Positions 5,900 through 17,055 of a stretch of 32,000 bases of DNA are shown here, in pieces. Position numbers and translations under genes: made by a program. Positions within the stretch are counted from its first letter, which is position 1. Each line of letters starts with the position of its first letter. The notes beneath the pieces were generated by a model, which saw only the letters and a list, made by a program, of their open reading frames with translations, made no database searches and was not told where the DNA came from. Origin of the DNA: Bifidobacterium longum subsp. longum JCM 1217 (GTDB taxonomy: Bacteria; Actinomycetota; Actinomycetes; Actinomycetales; Bifidobacteriaceae); assembly GCF_000196555.1 (NCBI RefSeq), contig NC_015067.1, forward strand, positions 960,001 through 992,000. The letters run 5' to 3'.

Positions 5900-7779
<1,880 letters not shown>

Positions 7780-7780
<1 letters not shown>

Positions 7781-9189
7781 TGTTCGAGGTCTACATCCAC
7801 GTCCCGTTCTGCTTGCGGCGCTGCGGTTACTGCGACTTCAACACCTACACGGCTACGGATCTTGGTGCGGGGGCCTCGCGCGGCAACTATGCCAATATGG
7901 TCATTCGGGAAATGAAATTGACCAAGCAGTGGCAGCTCGACCACGGCATCGAGGAGCCGCCGGTTTCCACCGTGTTCTTCGGCGGCGGCACCCCCACAAT
8001 TCTCGCCGCCCGCGATCTGGTCGCCATGCTCGATGCCGTCCGCAAGATCTGGAGCATCGCGCCCGACGCGGAAATCACTACCGAAGCCAATCCGGACACG
8101 GTCAACGAGTATTACATCAATGAGCTCGCTGCCGGCGGCTTCACCCGTGTTTCCTTCGGCATGCAATCTGCCGTGCCGCACGTGCTCAAAACCCTCGACC
8201 GCACGCATACGCCGGCCAACGTGGCCGTAGGCGTCAATGCGGCGAACAAGGCTGGGCTGCGCTCCAGCGTGGATCTGATTTACGGCGCTCCGGGGGAGAG
8301 CCTTGACGATTGGCGCACCTCGGTCACGACCGCCATCGATCTTGGCGTAAACCACATCTCCGCCTACGCATTGACCGTGGAACCCACCACGAAAATGGGC
8401 CGTCAAATCGCGGCCGGCACTCTGCCCAAGCCCAATGACGATGACGAGGCCGCTAAATACGAGATCGCTGACGACCTGTTCGCCGCCGCCGGCCTCGAAT
8501 GGTATGAGGTCTCCAACTGGGCTCGCCCCGGATACGAAAGCCAGCACAACCTCGGCTACTGGCGCAACGTTGATTGGGCCGGTCTAGGGCCAGGTGCCCA
8601 CTCCCACTACAACGCGGTGACCGAGGCTGACCACCCCCAGTCGGCTTCGCTGACAGCCCCCGCTGGCGGGAGCAAGTCCGAAGCCATTGCCTCTGCCTCA
8701 GCTGATGGACAGGCCAACGCCGAACTAGGTATGATCAACGCGCATGGGAACAACTCCCAAGAAATTCATGCCCCCGCTGGCGGGGGTTGTCCGGCGGATG
8801 CCGGACTGGGGGTGGTTTCTGTCTCACACGGTCTGCGCAGCTGGGACATCGCGCACCCGCGTTTGTGGGGCACGGCCATCAACGAGAACCGTGTGCCGTG
8901 GGCCGATAGCGAGACGATCACTCCCGAGGAAAACCTCGAAGAGCTCATCATGCTCGGGCTGCGCCTGCACGAGGGCCTTGACCTCGACCGCATCAACCGC
9001 GCCATCAACGATGCGGGTATGAGCAGCACGCCCCAGACTCTCCGTAATGTTTCCCTTGACCAACTCGCCCCAATGGTCAGCGAAGGCCTGATTACCGTAT
9101 CCGATAATCATCGAGTGGTGCCCACTCGTCGTGGCCGGTTGCTCAATGACTCGGTAATCGAACAGTTCTTCGATTTCGTCGGTGTATGA
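7780..9189 (+). CDS. hemW: Radical SAM heme chaperone HemW / oxygen-independent coproporphyrinogen-III oxidase-like protein
   Basis: GTG start overlaps the lepA TAG by 1 nt (TAGTG). Radical-SAM CxxxCxxC motif ([10 protein letters not shown]). 469 aa, including a ~63-aa low-complexity insertion that coincides with a repeat element at 8629-8817. Confidence 0.88.
8629..8817. repeat. Inverted pair of GC-rich structured repeat units inside the hemW reading frame (MITE-like)
   Basis: Left unit 8629-8673 in reverse orientation (GACCACCCCCAGTCGGCTTCGCTGACAGCCCCCGCTGGCGGGAGC). Right unit 8770-8817 in forward orientation (GCCCCCGCTGGCGGGGGTTGTCCGGCGGATGCCGGACTGGGGGTGGTT). The termini are inverted repeats, and the span is 189 nt, a multiple of 3. 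Confidence 0.7.
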
Positions 9190-9268: not shown

Positions 9269-10369
9269 TTACCGGCGGGGGAGGGAACCGCGTAGGACTA
9301 CGTCCGGGGCGCTTTGCACGTAGATCAGGCGGTTGGCAGTGCCGCCGGTGGCCTCCCCGTCATCGCGGTTGGACAGGATGCTGTCCACGGCGGCCTGGCC
9401 CATTTCGGCCAGCGGCAGATGCACGGTGGTCAGTGGCGGAAACACGTCGGCGGAGTAGGGGATGTCGCCGAAACCGGTGACGCCGATTTCCCGACCCGGC
9501 TCGATGCCGTTGGCGCGCAACGCGGTCATCGCACCGATGGCCATCACGTCGTTGAGCGCGATGATTGAATCGATGCCTTTGCCGTCGTACAGTGCGCCTT
9601 CGCCCGGCTTCAGCAGTCCGGATCGGGCCATTTGCATGACGGCCGCATAGCCGTCGGTACGGCTGAACTTACCATTCGCCACGGCTTTCGGATCCACGGT
9701 GATGCCTGCCTCGTCCAACACTTCCATCACGCCGGCCAGTCGTTCTTTGGAGGAGCGATGTGCGTCATCGCCCTTGAGAATCGCAGGGCGCGTATACCCG
9801 GAATCGACGATCAGCTTTGCGATGGCGCGCGCGCCGACATCGTTCGCCATGTCCACGGCCGGGAAGGGCAGGTTGCGGTTGAGCACGAACACGGCACGTC
9901 CGCCGGATGCTTCGTACTGGGTGAGTTCCGTCTGCAACGCCTGGCGTTCCGGCGCGTCGGTGTATTCACTTTCGGAGATGATGATGCCGCGCGGCCTGGT
10001 GGATACGGACTTACGCACCGCCTCCAACTCTTCGTGCGGGGTGGCTGCCACGCCGATGGTCACGGAAATGCCGCGTTCGGCCGCCGCCTTGACCACGCCT
10101 TGAGATACGGATGCGAAGTAGGGATCGGAGATATCGGAGACCAGCAGCACGATGTTCGGTGCGGTGCCTTTGGCCACTGCCTGAGCATAGGCGTTGGGAC
10201 GATAGTTGAGCTTGGTGGCTGCTTCCATCACCTTGACATACGATTGGTTGCGTACCTTGCGGGTGCTGCCGTTGAGCACGCGGGATGCGGTGGCGATGGA
10301 GACTTGGGCTTCTTTGGCGACATCCATCAATGTCGCTGGCGATTGCGCCTTATCGTTCTGTACAGCCAC
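9269..10369 (-). CDS. LacI-family transcriptional regulator
   Basis: HTH LMDVAKEAQVSIATASRVLNGS near the N-terminus, then a periplasmic-binding-protein-like sugar-binding domain. The ORF extends to 10501, but the GTG at 10367-10369 (AAGG upstream) gives a normal-length 366-aa protein. Confidence 0.85.
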   Translation of the reverse strand: MAVQNDKAQSPATLMDVAKEAQVSIATASRVLNGSTRKVRNQSYVKVMEAATKLNYRPNAYAQAVAKGTAPNIVLLVSDISDPYFASVSQGVVKAAAERGISVTIGVAATPHEELEAVRKSVSTRPRGIIISESEYTDAPERQALQTELTQYEASGGRAVFVLNRNLPFPAVDMANDVGARAIAKLIVDSGYTRPAILKGDDAHRSSKERLAGVMEVLDEAGITVDPKAVANGKFSRTDGYAAVMQMARSGLLKPGEGALYDGKGIDSIIALNDVMAIGAMTALRANGIEPGREIGVTGFGDIPYSADVFPPLTTVHLPLAEMGQAAVDSILSNRDDGEATGGTANRLIYVQSAPDVVLRGSLPRR

Positions 10370-10408
10370 GATCGAATCGATCCTTTTCTTCCCTGAAACG
10401 GAAAACGT

Positions 10409-10424
10409 GTCTAAACGTTTACCG
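10409..10424. promoter_or_regulatory. LacI-type operator candidate (site 1)
   Basis: Perfect CG-centred palindrome TAAACGTTTA (10412-10421). Shares the 12-mer AAACGTTTACCG with site 2. Lies ~40 nt upstream of the LacI gene start. Confidence 0.5.
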
Positions 10425-10509
10425 CAACGATATCGCATTTTTGCTTGCAATAGTAGCATTGTGGATTGGAAAGCCTGAATTCTGAACAAAAAAATAATCA
10501 CGCGAATTA

Positions 10510-10525
10510 CGGAAAACGTTTACCG
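10510..10525. promoter_or_regulatory. LacI-type operator candidate (site 2) upstream of glycerate kinase
   Basis: CGGAAAACGTTTACCG is a 16-bp palindrome with one mismatched pair, 31 nt upstream of ATG 10556. It overlaps the presumed -35 region of a TATGCT -10 box (10544-10549). Confidence 0.5.
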
Positions 10526-10555
10526 TTTCGTCGTGTCGTGCGGTATGCTCGAAGC

Positions 10556-11686
10556 ATGACGCGATACTTATGCGCCCCTGACTCCTTCAAAGAGAGCCTG
10601 ACCGCCATGGAGGCGGCCCGGGCGATGGCTCAGGGGATTGAGAATGCCGACCACGATGCCGAGGTCCGTTGCCTTCCCATGGCCGACGGCGGTGAAGGCA
10701 CCGCACGCGCGCTTGTCGACGCCACCGGCGGATCGATGCGCGCCGTGCCGGTCCACGACCCGCTCGGCCGGCCTGTCGAAGGCCACTTCGGTCTGCTCGC
10801 CGACGGCACGACCGCCGTGGTCGAGACAGCCGAAGCCAGCGGACTGGCACTGCTTGAAGCCAAAGAACGCAACCCGTTGATCGCCTCCTCCTACGGCACC
10901 GGCGAACTCATGCTCGCCGCCGTCCGTTCCGGAGCCAAGCGCATCATCGTCGGGCTCGGCGGCAGCGCCACCAACGACGCCGGTGCCGGACTTCTGCAGG
11001 CCCTCGGCGTTCGTCTTCTGGACAAGAACGGTAACGACTTGGCACACGGGGGAGCGGCCCTCGCCAATCTGACCACCATCGATATCAGCACGATGGACCC
11101 GGCTCTCAAGAACGTCGCCATCACCGCCGCCTGCGACGTGACCAACCCGCTGACCGGCCCCACCGGCGCCAGCGCCGTGTTCGGCCCGCAGAAAGGTGCG
11201 TCCAAAGATGATGTCGCCACATTGGACGCCGCCCTCGCGCATTTTGCGCAGGTAATCGACAGCCAGCTCGGCGTTGCCGTGAACGACGTGCCGGGTGCCG
11301 GCGCGGCCGGTGGCATCGGTGCAGCGCTGAAGGGCTTCCTAAACGCCGAATTCCGCCCGGGCATCGCCATCGTCATCGAACAATCCGGACTCGATGCGGC
11401 CGCGCAATGGGCTGACGTGGTGTTCACCGGCGAAGGCTCCATCGACTTCCAGACCAAGTTCGGCAAGACGCCGGCCGGCGTGGCCGAAACCGCCAAGCGC
11501 CACGGCAAGCCGGTCATCGCAGTAGCCGGGCATATTGGCACCGGCATCGATGAGCTGCATGAGGTCGGCATCGACGCGGTATTCGGCATCGCGCCCGGAG
11601 CCGCCAGCCTCAGCGAACTGCTGGCCGACGCGGCCGCCAACGTGACCCGCACCACCGAACAAATCGTACGAACCCTACAACTGTGA
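10556..11686 (+). CDS. glxK: Glycerate kinase
   Basis: 376 aa from ATG 10556 (MTRYLCAPDSFKESLTA...). Family stretches include MADGGEGT and TGEGSIDFQTKFGKTP. The upstream part of the track ORF (from TTG 10466) runs through the operator region and is unlikely to be coding. Confidence 0.9.
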   Translation: MTRYLCAPDSFKESLTAMEAARAMAQGIENADHDAEVRCLPMADGGEGTARALVDATGGSMRAVPVHDPLGRPVEGHFGLLADGTTAVVETAEASGLALLEAKERNPLIASSYGTGELMLAAVRSGAKRIIVGLGGSATNDAGAGLLQALGVRLLDKNGNDLAHGGAALANLTTIDISTMDPALKNVAITAACDVTNPLTGPTGASAVFGPQKGASKDDVATLDAALAHFAQVIDSQLGVAVNDVPGAGAAGGIGAALKGFLNAEFRPGIAIVIEQSGLDAAAQWADVVFTGEGSIDFQTKFGKTPAGVAETAKRHGKPVIAVAGHIGTGIDELHEVGIDAVFGIAPGAASLSELLADAAANVTRTTEQIVRTLQL

Positions 11687-13428: not shown

Positions 13429-13794
13429 TTCCGTCCCTTGGTGTTTCGTTCTTCAGTCACTGTGCAGGATGCCGTTCGGCGTGCATCACAGGCATTGTAG
13501 AGGCAACAGTGTGGACAACGGACGGGGGAGTATCTCATGATGCGGTGAGGGCGTTGATGATGACGCATCGTGTATTGGCGGCCGTGTGCATCGTATGTGA
13601 ACCTGTGCTGGCGCGGCGTACGCACGATGGGAAAAGAAAGAATATATGGACCCCGTTGTCCCGGTTATTGTTCAGTTTTACTGTGTTGAATTATTGCGTT
13701 ATTCAATTATTGTGGTGTGCCGGCCGATTGCGGCCTGCGGGGGATTGCCTTCGTATGTGTCGTGCAATCTCATGAACGGGATTGTTCGCTAGAT

Positions 13795-13923
13795 TCAGCG
13801 AGCGTCCTTGTTGGCGGCGTTGATGATGTCGGCGAACATCTTGGAGTCGGCGTAGCCGGCGCGGGCGATGGCATCCATACCGGAGAGGGCGAGACCGCGA
13901 ATCATGGAATCCTTGAGAGACAT
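13795..13923 (-). CDS. Small hypothetical protein, 42 aa (paralog A)
   Basis: Below the ORF-track cutoff. MSLKDSMIRGLALSGMDAIARAGYADSKMFADIINAANKDAR, with AAAGG SD 8 nt upstream and GC3-rich codons. It is 57% identical to the ORF at 14039-14167 with exactly the same length. Confidence 0.55.
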   Translation of the reverse strand: MSLKDSMIRGLALSGMDAIARAGYADSKMFADIINAANKDAR

Positions 13924-14038
13924 AATCATTACCTTTCGTTTGCGCATCGCCGTGAGCGGCTTTGCGATTGTTGTTTAAGCTTTGTTGTTATGGGGTCCGT
14001 GGCTAATCTGATTGGATTGCCGGACCGGAGCCGATGGC

Positions 14039-14167
14039 TCAGCGAGCGTTCTTGTTGGCTTCGTTGATCAGGTCGACGAGCGTGCTGCTGTTGGCGCGAC
14101 CGCACTGGCTCATGGAGCTCAGGCCGTACACAGCCAGACCGCGAATCATGGAATCCTTGAGAGACAT
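14039..14167 (-). CDS. Small hypothetical protein, 42 aa (paralog B)
   Basis: MSLKDSMIRGLAVYGLSSMSQCGRANSSTLVDLINEANKNAR, with AAAGGA SD. An in-frame ATG one codon upstream (14168-14170) is an alternative start. The first 32 nt are identical to paralog A. Confidence 0.55.
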   Translation of the reverse strand: MSLKDSMIRGLAVYGLSSMSQCGRANSSTLVDLINEANKNAR

Positions 14168-14224
14168 CATGTTTCCTTTCGTTGGTCAAAACCTTGGGGC
14201 TTTGAGTTTTGTTTATCGGCTTCT

Positions 14225-14244
14225 TTCTGAAACCGGTTTCAGAA
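14225..14244. promoter_or_regulatory. 20-bp perfect palindrome (candidate operator) upstream of the small-ORF pair
   Basis: TTCTGAAACCGGTTTCAGAA is its own reverse complement. It lies 57 nt upstream of the ATG at 14167 on the minus strand. Confidence 0.4.
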
Positions 14245-14376
14245 TAACGCAGTCCGATGACAAACGCAAGGGGACTATTCCGCTCTCGGCGTTTCTGGCG
14301 GAATATCGCCGTTCTTTAGATACCATTCGGTAGTTAAGAGGTTGTCTAGTCGACCTTCTGACGGCCTTGTTCTGAG

Positions 14377-14466
14377 CGTACGGTTTTCACGAGGTATGGC
14401 CTCATGTCGCGGAAATCGTACGCTGAGTCGTCGTAAGCGTACGGTTTTCACGAAATGGGGCCTATC
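14377..14466. repeat. Hairpin-repeat array (1.5 units), inverted relative to the array at 15631-15832
   Basis: Full unit 14377-14422. The half unit 14438-14463 is identical over 26 nt to the reverse complement of unit 15692-15737. It abuts the stop codon (14468-14470) of the DUF559-like gene. Confidence 0.85.
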
Positions 14467-14467
14467 T

Positions 14468-15421
14468 TCACCGGATTTTGGGCACACCGGCCTTGAGCAG
14501 CTTGGTCTCAAGATTGATGGGGCGTAGCAGATCCTCATAGAACACATGGACGATTTCGGTGACGCCCTGTTCCCGGAGATGCCGATCACGTCTGCGGTCG
14601 TACTCCATTTTCGCCTGGAGGCTTGCGCGATTCTTGTTGCTGATGTCGGCGTATTTGGCCATGCCGTCGTATTCTGCCACGATGATGCGGCCGTCTGCGA
14701 GCTTCCAACAGAAATCGACGCGATATGACATTGCGGGATTGTCGGGATTCATGAACTGCACCTGCAGCAGGGGGATGCCGAAAGACAATTCGGTGATCTG
14801 GCCACGCATCAATGATTCGCCGCCGTTTTCGCTCAGGGGATCCGCGTACTTCAGCAGCTTGGTCACGGAGACCTCGTCGCAGACGCTTTGAATCATCAGC
14901 GACTGCACCTCTTCGATGGTCGTCAGGGACTTTCTCAGAGCCGAATCGTATATGGGCAGCGCCTGTGGGAATGGGAATGCCGCGCAGTCGAGCAGCGTTC
15001 GCGCCGGAGTCGTCAAGAGAATGCCGTTATGCTTCCGCGTCGGAATCCGATTGATATAGATGCGGTTGAGACGCGCCTCGTCTCCGCCGCCGATGCCGGA
15101 CTTCGAGGCGATGTGCACTGTGCCGTCGTGCAGGGAATAGTTGTGCTGCAGTCCGTATACGCACGCCGCACTCAACCCCGCAAATACCCACTGAGGGTGG
15201 ATTGCGGACAACGCACGTATGACCTGCAATGACTGTTGCTCTCTGGTCATGGTGTTCCAAAGTGTTCGGTCGGCGTACAGGTTCTTATACGGTGACACCA
15301 GCTCCCCGGCATGCAGGCGACGTTTCAGGGCGCGCCGTTGCGCATCACTGGTGCCATAGCAGCAGCGACGCTCCTGCTTCGCCTGCTGCAGCAGTGCAGA
15401 AACTTCCTTGTGTTCTTTCAT
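14468..15421 (-). CDS. Hypothetical protein with AbiEi-like N-terminal region and DUF559 / Vsr-like endonuclease-fold C-terminus
   Basis: 317-aa ORF. The C-terminal stretch YRVDFCWKLADGRIIVAEYDGMAKY...RRRDRHLREQGVTEIV fits the DUF559 pattern (xDFxW...vEyDG...K...R...L...G) as I remember it. Confidence 0.8.
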   Translation of the reverse strand: MKEHKEVSALLQQAKQERRCCYGTSDAQRRALKRRLHAGELVSPYKNLYADRTLWNTMTREQQSLQVIRALSAIHPQWVFAGLSAACVYGLQHNYSLHDGTVHIASKSGIGGGDEARLNRIYINRIPTRKHNGILLTTPARTLLDCAAFPFPQALPIYDSALRKSLTTIEEVQSLMIQSVCDEVSVTKLLKYADPLSENGGESLMRGQITELSFGIPLLQVQFMNPDNPAMSYRVDFCWKLADGRIIVAEYDGMAKYADISNKNRASLQAKMEYDRRRDRHLREQGVTEIVHVFYEDLLRPINLETKLLKAGVPKIR

Positions 15422-15630
15422 ATCTCGACGCTAAGGGTGATTTTGATCGTTGCACAAGCTCAACCGGCAAATGTGGATACTATGTCACGCGAATTGTTGC
15501 TGTGGATAACTTGAATCGACGTCGACGGCTTTGCCGACGGTCTTGTCGGAGGCGATATTAGCCTAGGACACCTTGCTGCGCCGCCTTCCATACCGAAAAC
15601 AGTCATCAGTGACACCGGGGGCATCTTCAG

Positions 15631-15832
15631 CGTACGTTCTTCACGAAATCAGCTGCCATTTCGTGAAAACCGTACGCTCAGAATGACTCAGTGTACGTTC
15701 TTCACGAGATGAGGCCCCATTTCGTGAAAACCGTACGTTGACGACGATTCAGTGTACGTTCTTCACGAAATTAGGGATGATTTCGCGGAAACCGTACACT
15801 CACCGCAACTCAGCGTACGGTTTTCACGAAGT
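15631..15832. repeat. Hairpin-repeat array (3.5 units), strict 61-nt period
   Basis: Units 15631-15676, 15692-15737, 15753-15798, and a half unit from 15814. Arms are (C/T)GTACGTTCTTCACGARAT and ATTTCGYGRAAACCGTAC. Loops vary. Confidence 0.9.
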
Positions 15833-16008
15833 TATCGATTTGGGTATAGGTTCCCCCGTCATGAACTACAATGAATCGCGGCGAAAAACGGAGAACCGAA
15901 GTCGGAGCGCGGCTGAACGGATATGGGTGTGACTGGATGGCTGTCATAGTGATGCCGGTTCTCTAACATACGCAATAACAACAACTGACAACAACAGGGG
16001 AGACAAGG

Positions 16009-17055
16009 ATGGCGAGAAGTGCGGGCCGCACCCGGCCGGTGATCAAGGACGTGGCCAAACTGGCCGGAGTCTCGGCACCGACCGTCTCCCGGTATCTCAA
16101 CGGCACCGTCAACGTCACCGAAGACAAGCGTGAACGCATCGCCAAGGCCATCAAGGAGCTGGGCTACGAGCCGAGCATTGTGGCGCGCGCTCTGTCGAAC
16201 CGGGAGATGGACTCCGTGGTGGTGTTCGCGGCCAATCCTTCCGCCTTCTCCACGTCCGAAACGAACCATGGGGTGGAGGCCGCCGCCCGTAAACGTCGGT
16301 TCCTGCTCAATATTGTTTCTTTGGACGAGTCCGACATGGACTCCGTCAAGGCTCGCGTGCGCATGGGTTTGTCGATCAGGCCGGCGGGCGTGATCGTCTA
16401 CGAGTACGACCGGGCCGGCATCGCCGCACTGGAATACATTCCCAAAGATATGCCGATGGTCGTGGTGGGTGGCAGCCTCGGCGACGGTGAATACCAGGTC
16501 ATCAACGCCGAAAGGGATGGCGGCCGTTGGATGACCATGCATCTGCTGGATCTCGGCCATCGCACCGTGTTCCATGTGGGGCGTCCGGAAGGTCCGACCG
16601 ATAACACCCGCACCAATGGGTGGCGTGACGCGCTCAAGGAGCGCGGCGTCACGGCACCTGACCCAATCATCGTGCCCGACGATGATTTGGAGGAGTCGGT
16701 CAAGGCTGGACGCACCTTGGGCCGTCGTGGTGATGTGACTGCGATTTTCGCCGGCAACGACGAGACTGCCATCGCTGTGATCCGGGGTCTAAGGGAGGTT
16801 GGTCGCCGCGTGCCTGCTGACGTGAGCGTCGTAGGCTTTGACGACCGCAACTTCGGTGCCATGTGGAATCCGGCGCTGACCAGTTACACCCAGAACTTCC
16901 TGGACATGGGGGAGCGGTCCTTCCGAATGCTGTTCGAACAGATCCAGGCCAAGCGCGCCGGCGATGACGCGCCGCCCTCGCAGGTCGAGGTGGTGCAAGG
17001 CAAGCCGTGTCTGCGAGCCTCCGAACGCGCGTACGGCGACGGTGAAATCGCGTAG
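16009..17055 (+). CDS. LacI-family transcriptional regulator
   Basis: 348 aa. HTH IKDVAKLAGVSAPTVSRYLNG and the C-terminal effector-domain hallmark VSVVGFDD. SD GGGGAGACAAGG before the ATG. Confidence 0.9.
   Translation: MARSAGRTRPVIKDVAKLAGVSAPTVSRYLNGTVNVTEDKRERIAKAIKELGYEPSIVARALSNREMDSVVVFAANPSAFSTSETNHGVEAAARKRRFLLNIVSLDESDMDSVKARVRMGLSIRPAGVIVYEYDRAGIAALEYIPKDMPMVVVGGSLGDGEYQVINAERDGGRWMTMHLLDLGHRTVFHVGRPEGPTDNTRTNGWRDALKERGVTAPDPIIVPDDDLEESVKAGRTLGRRGDVTAIFAGNDETAIAVIRGLREVGRRVPADVSVVGFDDRNFGAMWNPALTSYTQNFLDMGERSFRMLFEQIQAKRAGDDAPPSQVEVVQGKPCLRASERAYGDGEIA

Follow-up and report, generated by a model that had tools for sequence, protein, structure and literature searches.

Small genes, operator and regulator at the locus

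The window that we analysed is a stretch of 32,000 nucleotides (nt) from the chromosome of Bifidobacterium longum subsp. longum JCM 1217 (contig NC_015067.1, positions 960,001 to 992,000), and all coordinates below count from its first letter unless another accession is named. On its minus strand lie two small open reading frames (ORFs), ORF B (14039-14167) and ORF A (13795-13923), preceded by a perfect palindrome of 20 base pairs (bp) and, further away, by a divergent gene encoding a LacI-family transcription factor. We describe here this arrangement, its conservation within Bifidobacterium, and the arguments that it might constitute an operon of small proteins under the control of the divergently encoded regulator.

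Both ORFs have 42 codons followed by TGA, as read from the sequence and from the list of ORFs. The predicted products, of 42 amino acids (aa), are MSLKDSMIRGLAVYGLSSMSQCGRANSSTLVDLINEANKNAR for ORF B (the B-type paralog, identical to BLLJ_0779) and MSLKDSMIRGLALSGMDAIARAGYADSKMFADIINAANKDAR for ORF A (the A-type paralog); they share 24 of 42 residues, and their genes have the same first 32 nt and differ by one base in the last 21 nt. Each is preceded, 6-7 nt before its ATG, by a Shine-Dalgarno (SD) box on the minus strand: GAAAGGA for ORF B (14174-14180), of which AAAGG is invariant across loci, and GAAAGG for ORF A (13932-13937), which is also found before the second and third copies elsewhere. 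ORF B has an extra in-frame ATG at 14170. A previous reading of this DNA, made from sequence only, had reported the coordinates of the ORFs, their peptides, paralogy and SD boxes, and the 20-bp palindrome, all of which match the sequence base for base. It had also called the ORFs hidden. They are indeed absent from an ORF track with a 60-aa cut-off, but they have already been deposited as "hypothetical protein" in many B. longum genomes. The exact sequences of ORF A and ORF B are on record (for example as BLLJ_0779, HMPREF0175_0315 and a WP "MULTISPECIES" record), each with at least 1000 contigs, which identifies the window as a B. longum-type locus. The two genes are annotated in places and uncharacterised: we found, in the main text of papers, no mention of the peptide strings, of the operator string, or of the tags Bbr_0934/5, BL0838/9, Blon_1483, BLLJ_0778-81 and BLJ_0910. 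Peptides A and B are also absent from the supplements of the SIHUMIx small-protein proteogenomics study, which includes B. longum NCC2705; tryptic peptides of ORF A would be GLALSGMDAIAR, AGYADSK and MFADIINAANK.

The palindrome, TTCTGAAACCGGTTTCAGAA (14225-14244), lies 57 nt from ORF B and has the core TGAAACCGGTTTCA. Operators of the LacI/GalR family follow the consensus TGNAANCGNTTNCA. The core matches it at 10 of the 10 specified positions, with CG at the centre, and the description of LacI motifs in PMC4746261 also underlies this consensus. When up to two mismatches are allowed, the 14-nt core is expected 0.04 times in the window, and no second operator-like site was found there at this tolerance. 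The identical 20-mer is listed as a predicted MsmR1 site at -181/-182 of BIFBRE_03928/Bbr_0934 (Khoroshkin et al. 2016, supplement, PMC4746261), and a one-base variant, TTTTGAAACCGGTTTCAGAA, is listed at -210 of Blon_1483 in B. longum subsp. infantis. According to the same study, MsmR1 has no other site than this one, and no other target than its own gene, in B. breve and in B. longum subsp. infantis, the site being read as autoregulatory; the MsmR1 site entry of B. longum NCC2705 (BL0838) is empty; and the label "alpha-galactoside" derives from B. dentium, in which msmR1 is the last gene of an agaL1-msmEFG1 operon with a different site (PMC4746261).

The regulator gene of the window (16009-17055, plus strand) encodes a LacI helix-turn-helix domain and Peripla_BP_3/1/4 domains (Pfam) and belongs to the MsmR1 ortholog group BL0838/Bbr_0934/Blon_1483; we presume that it is a repressor. 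Its product is 98.9% identical to the counterpart in two other B. longum loci (L009/L010), and orthologs with 74-99% identity lie divergently beside the small ORFs in L002-L006 and L009-L017, as well as in those metagenomic loci, 15 in number, that yielded a LacI ortholog. The sequence-only reading had missed this gene, which is, judging from such gene order, the true conserved partner of the small ORFs.

The operator keeps its distance to the small ORFs

The core of the palindrome is found once per locus, on the correct strand, about 57-66 nt upstream of the first small ORF in 17 of 17 loci derived from genomes or contigs. A metagenome scan for the operator with TNTGAAACCGGTTTCANA returned 115 loci, 18 of which carry ORFs of the family, and in all 18 the operator is 55-75 nt upstream of the first one. 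Every metagenomic locus with a regulator ortholog also has the ORFs. We regard the operator matches in the remaining 97 loci, which have 30-70% GC, as other organisms or chance matches. The association between the ORFs and the palindrome proposed in the sequence-only reading is recovered in all 35 of these loci, genome-derived and metagenomic; the association with a downstream MATE gene, proposed together with it, is not conserved.

No such constancy is seen between the operator and the regulator gene, whose separation ranges from about 190 to 1830 nt. The operator lies some 190-320 nt from the regulator start codon where the locus is compact (L002-L006, L012), and in the window, L009 and L015 the two are 1.4-1.8 kb apart, separated by an inserted ORF of 227-317 aa and by repeats. 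This bears on the published interpretation, under which the palindrome mainly autoregulates msmR1 (Khoroshkin et al. 2016) and the small ORFs would just happen to lie in the same intergenic region. That interpretation is in keeping with the sites listed for B. breve and B. longum subsp. infantis, at -181, -182 and -210 relative to msmR1 (PMC4746261), and with compact loci such as L002 and L012, where about 190 nt separate the site from the start codon of the regulator and one operator could serve both divergent promoters. In the window, however, the gap amounts to 1.77 kb, filled with a 317-aa ORF and repeats, and there is no other site near msmR1, so that autoregulation through the palindrome would have to act over 1.77 kb; the gap is comparable in L009 and L015. 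Moreover, the loci of B. parmae and B. stellenboschense (L007/L008) keep the distance from operator to small ORF and the overlap with the -10 box without a nearby regulator gene. We thus consider it quite unlikely that autoregulation is the main function of the site.

Since the operator keeps its distance to the small ORFs while its distance to the regulator gene varies or the gene is absent, the small-ORF operon is likely to be the real local target of MsmR1. If so, the published autoregulatory assignment and the blank entry of NCC2705 would result from the small ORFs not having been considered. An empty entry is also what would be expected in NCC2705 if the insertion shifted the site out of the msmR1 upstream region. 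What is new here is the assignment of the target; the palindrome was already known as a predicted MsmR1 site.

The predicted promoter and its overlap with the operator

The alignment of 11 upstream regions, from 11 species, reveals a conserved promoter on the minus strand. Its -35 element is TTGCGT (14264-14269), with CTTG invariant in the 11 loci, and a spacer of 17 nt separates it from the -10 element TATTCT (14241-14246), which belongs to a stretch, TATTCTGAAACCGGTTTCA, invariant in the same loci. The promoter consensus of B. breve is TTGACA/TATAAT with an optimal spacer of 17 bp (PMC5746004), and TTGCGT-17-TATTCT agrees with both. The last four nucleotides of the -10 element are the first four of the palindrome, which covers the -10 box and the predicted transcription start (around 14234). 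This is the classical position of a repressor site, relative to a promoter that is itself predicted. The earlier suggestion that the palindrome looks like an operator thus gains weight from the fit to the LacI family, the overlap with the -10 box, and the published prediction of an MsmR1 site. A generic scan for promoters and terminators missed both this conserved promoter and the hairpin at the 3' end described below. The start-site tables of B. breve UCC2003 have no entry for Bbr_0933-0935, a mere absence of data that fits an operon silent in laboratory medium.

A further conserved box, GA[AC]ACGCCG (14287-14295, minus strand), lies about 16 nt upstream of the -35 element and is invariant in the 11-species alignment. 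It is also present in two loci that have a different operator (L018/L019), which suggests a second regulatory input or factor site, or an UP-like element common to the promoters of the family.

The small ORFs are very probably translated

The sequence-only reading took the ORFs to encode translated peptides, and their frame and length do persist in relatives. First, the ATG, the SD box, a length of 39-42 codons and the TGA are preserved in 18 of 18 divergent copies, and the spacers between the ORFs are free to vary in sequence and in length (67 to 132 nt). Second, protein motifs survive codon changes. The codon of Ser6 is TCC or TCG in most copies and AGC in L018, and the motif RGLAMYG, encoded by CGC GGT CTC GCC ATG TAC GGT in most copies, is encoded by CGC GGA CTT GCT ATG TAT GGT in L020, which has a lower GC content, the protein being kept despite four third-position changes. 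Third, BLOSUM62 similarity is best in the sense frame (3.07 versus at most 2.83 in the other five). Because of this fixed gene architecture, of amino acids kept through codon changes and of the better score of the sense frame, we conclude that ORF A and ORF B are very probably translated genes.

The pattern of substitution is unusual. The synonymous divergence (dS) of the small ORFs is 0.08-0.5. Between the same pairs of genomes, the adjacent regulator gene has a dS of 0.7-2.7 and a non-synonymous divergence (dN) of 0.05-0.17; residues 13-31 of the small proteins evolve faster than the neighbouring regulator protein. After codon 10, 22 of the 23 two-fold codons with a pyrimidine at the third position end in C, and 0-3% of the codons end in A. 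In comparison, the ribosomal gene rpsT of the window has 14 of 16 and 2.3%, and the neighbouring genes have 70-79% and 7-15%. The first ten codons include the invariant A/T-ending GAT5, ATT8 and GGT10, as would be expected for a start region kept free of structure. We read the slow synonymous sites as the probable signature of a heavily translated gene.

Structures in the transcript and its probable end

Between the promoter and ORF B, about 6 nt upstream of the SD box, the 5' untranslated region (UTR) forms in the consensus fold of the 11 UTRs a hairpin, TCAAAGCC-CCAA-GGTTTTGA (14186-14205, minus strand). Seven pairs are preserved, with changes between G-C and G-U, in the form TCAAAGCC/GGYTTTGA. 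B. scaligerum and B. olomucense have CGAAG...CTTCG, with one compensatory change from A-U to G-C, which we read from the 11-region upstream alignment since MAFFT had split it in the alignment used for folding. A duplicate of this hairpin, CGCAAAGCCG-CTCA-CGGCGATGCG (13943-13966, minus strand), appears upstream of ORF A in the minimum-free-energy and centroid folds of the whole transcript, and in L012 and L015 the later copies have comparable GC hairpins in front of them. The sequence between ORF B and ORF A therefore repeats the module of the 5' UTR, a GC hairpin and an SD box; no second operator or promoter is evident between the two ORFs, from which we infer a bicistronic mRNA.

Between ORF A and the MATE gene, the 3' UTR ends in a likely terminator made of the hairpin GGAC-AACGGG-GTCC and a T/C-rich tail, ATATATTCTTTCTTTTC (13631-13662, minus strand). 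Six loci, from at least four species, share the element GGACAAYGGNGTCC with little or no change, even though the synonymous sites of the neighbouring gene are saturated. B. parmae, B. aesculapii and L018 have instead long canonical GC hairpins after the last small ORF. Given the conservation and position of the hairpin, transcription would normally end there, about 200 nt before the MATE start codon. In a broader stretch of the 3' UTR (13631-13700, minus strand), shared with L003, L004, L009, L012 and L015, we observed repeated motifs resembling GATAAYTSAAC, GGACAAYGGNGTCC with a conserved loop, and the T/C-rich tail. Such a conserved 3' UTR may do more than terminate transcription and could be a protein-binding site or the source of a 3'UTR-derived RNA.

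These structures raise the question of whether the functional product could be the RNA, i.e., a dual-function or purely regulatory RNA of about 0.6 kb, or a processed part of it, akin to SgrS or SR1, in which the ORFs would be secondary or incidental. Compared with the adjacent gene, the synonymous sites of the ORFs show a 5-9-fold stronger conservation; hardly any change is seen in the first 32 nt of the ORFs, even at the non-preferred codons GAT5, ATT8 and GGT10; and the 5' hairpin, the 3' block and its hairpin are all conserved. The layout also recalls that of sgrR-sgrS/sgrT: next to the gene of a sugar-type regulator, and divergent from it, lies a short transcript for a peptide of about 42 aa. 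Against this, no Rfam family matches, and the fold of the whole transcript barely beats that of shuffled sequences (z = -1.9). There is a strict 42-codon frame with SD box and ATG in every copy, next to intercistronic sequence that varies freely from 67 to 132 nt; the protein motifs outlast nucleotide change at deeper divergence (L018, L020); and the low dS is explained by codon bias and a translation start of low structure. A purely or mainly RNA-based function appears to us unlikely. Searches of Pfam, NCBIfam and Rfam gave no homology to dual-function small RNAs (SgrT, SR1P, Rfam small RNAs), and Rfam yielded nothing for the entire window at the gathering threshold; with E<=1 at the locus, its one match, to an internal ribosome entry site, is due to chance.

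A family of small proteins restricted to Bifidobacterium

The two ORFs belong to a family restricted to Bifidobacterium, whose members have 39-43 aa except for mis-called or fused ORFs and follow the consensus M-S-[LF]-K-D-S-M-[IML]-R-G-L-A-x-Y-G ... D-[IL]-[IV]-N ... K-x-A-R. Searches of a collection of 5.8 billion proteins recovered 43 and then 85 clusters at 90% identity. An exhaustive search with a hidden Markov model (HMM) profile against 1.84 billion representatives gave 27 clusters at 50% identity; it found no instance of the motif in larger proteins, only more peptides of 39-43 aa of the Bifidobacterium type. A species-level genome scan was positive for B. scaligerum, B. myosotis, B. 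olomucense, B. aesculapii, B. parmae, B. stellenboschense and two metagenome-assembled genomes, and the family is also found in B. longum and in B. breve-like genomes. Neither peptide has a match in Pfam (E<=10), NCBIfam, PHROGs or PADLOC, and a sequence-profile search of the PDB returned only a chance match (E=0.07).

An HMM scan of every locus retrieved gave 1, 2 or 3 tandem copies per locus. Three paralog types, in the order B, C, A, occur in the B. longum group, and their retention differs between loci. Four metagenomic peptides (P0017, P0021, P0031 and P0047) are chimeric: each begins like one paralog type and ends like another (A/B, A/C). Such chimeras suggest recombination between tandem copies, by gene conversion or unequal crossing-over, aided by the identical first 32 nt, and some of these clusters may be assembly artefacts.

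Properties of the proteins and other classes of small peptides

The peptides have a net charge of +1 or +2, an isoelectric point of 8.2-9.5, a grand average of hydropathy (GRAVY) from -0.25 to about 0 (0.01), and no Trp. They have no transmembrane (TM) segment, no signal peptide, and no hydrophobic stretch of about 18 residues or more, their mean hydrophobicity being close to 0. AlphaFold2, run with a 16-sequence alignment, predicted one helix spanning residues 3-41, with a mean predicted local distance difference test (pLDDT) of 78 and a predicted template modelling score (pTM) of 0.31. Our own guess would be a helix-loop-helix, given the Gly residues at positions 10, 15 and 23 and amphipathic ends that are conserved around a variable middle.

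The leading idea of the sequence-only reading was that of leaderless secreted peptides exported by the MATE pump, which we considered in the form of a two-peptide leaderless bacteriocin or of phenol-soluble modulin (PSM)-like peptides. In its favour, the ORFs are tandem paralogs of about 42 aa without signal peptide and with a predicted amphipathic helix, their middle evolves fast, with dN/dS near or above 1 in close pairs, as an arms race would produce, and in this strain the MATE gene lies downstream on the same strand. Nonetheless, the ORFs persist without MATE in B. breve-like genomes, in marmoset species and in some B. longum loci, a terminator-like element intervenes, and the minimal locus holds no conserved transporter or immunity gene. 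A charge of +1/+2 and a GRAVY at or below 0 are far from the values of leaderless bacteriocins and PSM-beta, a comparison that is indicative only, and the peptides match nothing in Pfam, NCBIfam or the PDB. MATE pumps are not known to export peptides. Secretion of this kind is in our opinion very unlikely, and the evidence lends no support to the earlier ideas of a secreted or signalling pair or of a toxin/antitoxin pair.

The same reading had set the peptides apart from standard bacteriocins, from ribosomally synthesised and post-translationally modified peptides (RiPPs) and from type I toxins, and this judgement holds on charge, hydrophobicity, neighbouring genes and profile searches. A leaderless class IId-type bacteriocin was rejected as the peptides are not strongly cationic, hydrophobic or Trp-rich and have no conserved export or immunity genes, and PSM-beta was rejected for want of a Staph_haemolytic match (Pfam, E<=10). 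RiPP precursors were discarded since neither the neighbourhood in the window nor the conserved synteny includes genes for modification enzymes or peptidases; the sole resemblance to them is that of conserved ends around a variable core. A type I or other small membrane toxin was rejected on the lack of a TM helix and of a PADLOC match. Finally, a leader peptide or attenuator was rejected given that the downstream gene is convergent in many loci and that a terminator-like element follows the last ORF.

This last class deserves weighing together with a small toxin/antitoxin pair, since each ORF is short and ends in a conserved C-terminus (KNAR/KDAR), since an efflux gene follows on the same strand, and since the generic scan found no canonical terminator; the ORFs might then act as stalling or attenuation ORFs controlling MATE. 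In most loci, though, the next gene is a convergent glycerate kinase, which leaves no downstream gene to regulate, and the single-copy loci (B. longum L009, B. myosotis L004) argue against an obligate pair. The lack of a TM segment and of PADLOC or Pfam matches, and a codon bias that points to an abundant product rather than to a sensor ORF, speak in the same direction, and we hold both a leader and a toxin/antitoxin function to be extremely unlikely.

The MATE gene and the neighbourhood

The MATE gene (Pfam MatE) starts 366 nt downstream of ORF A, on the same strand, and the sequence-only reading had linked the two. The conserved synteny consists of the divergent regulator, the small ORFs, the convergent glycerate kinase gene, and genes for an HemN-like protein, LepA and rpsT; at its minimum, the locus is reduced to the regulator, the ORFs and the glycerate kinase gene, with no conserved transporter or immunity gene. 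The glycerate kinase gene is the next one downstream in most loci (B. breve-like, B. parmae and others). The loci without MATE include those of B. breve-like genomes (L012-L014, L038, L080) and of marmoset species, as well as L015-L017. Among B. longum contigs the MATE gene is missing in L040 and L062, intact in L097, L101 and L128, and reduced to its first 35 codons in L009-L011. In L009/L010 the stump is followed by an insertion sequence element with Transposase_20 (6499-7789). MATE is dispensable and decaying in part of B. longum. As a strain-variable neighbour, separated by a conserved terminator-like hairpin and absent from many loci that keep the ORFs, it was discarded as a functional partner.

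On the other side of the operator, an ORF of 317 aa (14468-15421, minus strand) sits between msmR1 and the operator, bracketed by palindromic repeat arrays with units of 61 nt (AGCGTACGKTYTTCACGA...TTCGTGAAAACCGTACGCT) at 14372-14463 and 15622-15836. It has no Pfam match and a weak similarity to the AbiEi antitoxin (PADLOC, E ~1e-3). Since the ORF and the arrays are absent from the B. breve-like and marmoset loci and truncated in some B. longum, this block looks like an inserted cassette or a repeat-mediated insertion. Elsewhere in the window, the GlxR operator AACGGTAAACGTTTTCCGTA listed for BL0845/BL0846 of NCC2705 (PMC4746261) has an exact match at 10508-10527, between a second LacI gene (9269-10501, minus strand) and the glycerate kinase gene (10466-11686, plus strand). 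This exact site, together with the names of the clusters, fixes the synteny with BL0838-BL0846. The longest ORF calls of these two genes overlap by 36 nt, and at least one of the real start codons probably lies further in.

A putative repressor-controlled operon

Taken together, the locus appears, with moderate confidence, to be a self-contained, repressor-controlled operon of small proteins under an MsmR1 operator. A sigma-70-type promoter would drive a minus-strand transcript of about 0.6 kb comprising, in order, the 5' UTR hairpin, the SD box and ORF B, the second hairpin, the SD box and ORF A, and the 3' UTR hairpin with its T-rich tail. MsmR1 bound to the operator would block RNA polymerase. 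A carbohydrate effector would release it, and both 42-aa proteins would then be made abundantly, as suggested by the strong SD boxes, the A/T-ending early codons and a codon bias like that of ribosomal protein genes. Being soluble, near-neutral and helical, the proteins might act inside the cell through a partner, such as a transporter, an enzyme or a regulator, and binding to this partner might adjust carbohydrate physiology.

Several observations weigh against this interpretation. Some concern the pairing of the operator, the regulator and the ORFs. In B. parmae and B. stellenboschense the genes upstream are metK and priA, and no LacI gene lies within 6 kb. In L018/L019 the small ORFs are divergent and have a different promoter and operator. 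In L018, a locus from a marmoset-type Bifidobacterium (GCA_002860355.1, NMWU01000012.1), the family members, of 41 aa, lie between GH88 and epimerase-like genes, behind a different promoter with a palindrome-like ACCTACCAATCGGTAAGT. The operators of the MsmR1 type in L018 lie elsewhere (positions 756, 3497 and 6462): an exact one 37 nt upstream of the GH88 gene and a copy with one mismatch upstream of an N-acylglucosamine-2-epimerase-like gene. The pairing of operator and small ORFs is thus not universal. A third copy there, with two mismatches, was observed upstream of another gene. The LacI gene of L018 (853-1887) encodes a protein 64% identical to MsmR1, with an almost identical recognition helix, and the layout hints at what may have been the ancestral regulon of MsmR1 and at a possible class of effector sugar, for which the GH88 and epimerase-like genes point to candidates derived from uronates or glycosaminoglycans.

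Other observations concern the transcript and its products. The terminator hairpin has only 4-5 bp and fails the generic scan, and in this strain some read-through into MATE may occur. The dN/dS of the small ORFs, among orthologs and paralogs, is 0.4-1.6 and so not clearly below 1, contrary to the clean coding signature that the sequence-only reading had anticipated; the variable columns are symmetric with respect to codon position (28/21/28); and the in-register antisense frame is open in 17 of 18 copies, as expected for a gene rich in GC at third positions. Substitution statistics alone are accordingly no proof of translation. The very low dS could stem from constraint on the RNA rather than from codon bias. 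The structural model has only moderate confidence, and no partner can be deduced from a single helix. Finally, all of the regulation is read from the DNA, and the cellular role of the peptides is a speculative guess.

One may speculate further that the proteins are sugar-induced small regulators whose variable middles dock on different transporters or enzymes, in an SgrT-like inducer exclusion, or on LacI-type regulators, MsmR1 solely switching this layer on. We judge this elaboration rather unlikely. If true, it would reveal a small-protein layer of carbohydrate hierarchy control in bifidobacteria, which lack the classical catabolite repression of the CcpA/HPr type.

The consequences depend on what the proteins do. 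Bifidobacterial carbohydrate regulons serve to predict the response to prebiotics, and a local regulator may seem to control nothing but itself when small ORFs go unannotated or are ignored. A small-protein operon under the MsmR1 operator gives the orphan regulator a plausible purpose, and the family a regulatory context. If the proteins modulate transporters or regulators, they would add a new layer of control to an important commensal of the gut; a role as nothing more than abundant stress or storage peptides would make the finding a minor one.

Comparison with known systems

In enterobacteria, the sgrR-sgrS/sgrT system has a sugar-stress regulator gene divergent from a short transcript that encodes SgrT, of 43 aa. 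By analogy only, this system and CcpN/CcpA-SR1/SR1P of Bacillus subtilis resemble the locus in that a carbohydrate-responsive factor controls a short transcript encoding a cytoplasmic protein of about 40 aa; in sgrR-sgrS the regulator gene is also the divergent neighbour, as in most of our loci. Unlike these systems, the bifidobacterial proteins show no sequence similarity to SgrT or SR1P (Pfam/NCBIfam), the regulator would be a LacI repressor instead of an activator such as SgrR, and there are one to three tandem paralogs.

Enterocin L50A/B, garvicin KS and PSM-beta are similar in consisting of tandem paralogous genes for helical, leaderless peptides of about 30-44 aa. They differ in being strongly cationic and hydrophobic, or clearly hydrophobic in the case of PSM-beta, and in having dedicated ABC exporters or immunity genes, whereas the Bifidobacterium peptides are near-neutral, with a GRAVY at or below 0, and have no conserved transporter. 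Sda (46 aa) and SinI (57 aa) of B. subtilis are alike in size, in being all-helical by prediction, and in lacking membrane or secretion signals. The pair sinI-sinR combines the gene of a small protein with that of a regulator. Sda and SinI have no homology to the 42-aa proteins.

The closest system is the published MsmR1 regulog, which shares with the locus the 20-bp site, the ortholog group of the regulator, and the chromosomal neighbourhood. It was described without the small ORFs, whereas here the operator tracks their promoter and not the regulator gene. The novelty is moderate, and lies in the pairing of a known kind of switch with a family of small proteins restricted to one genus.

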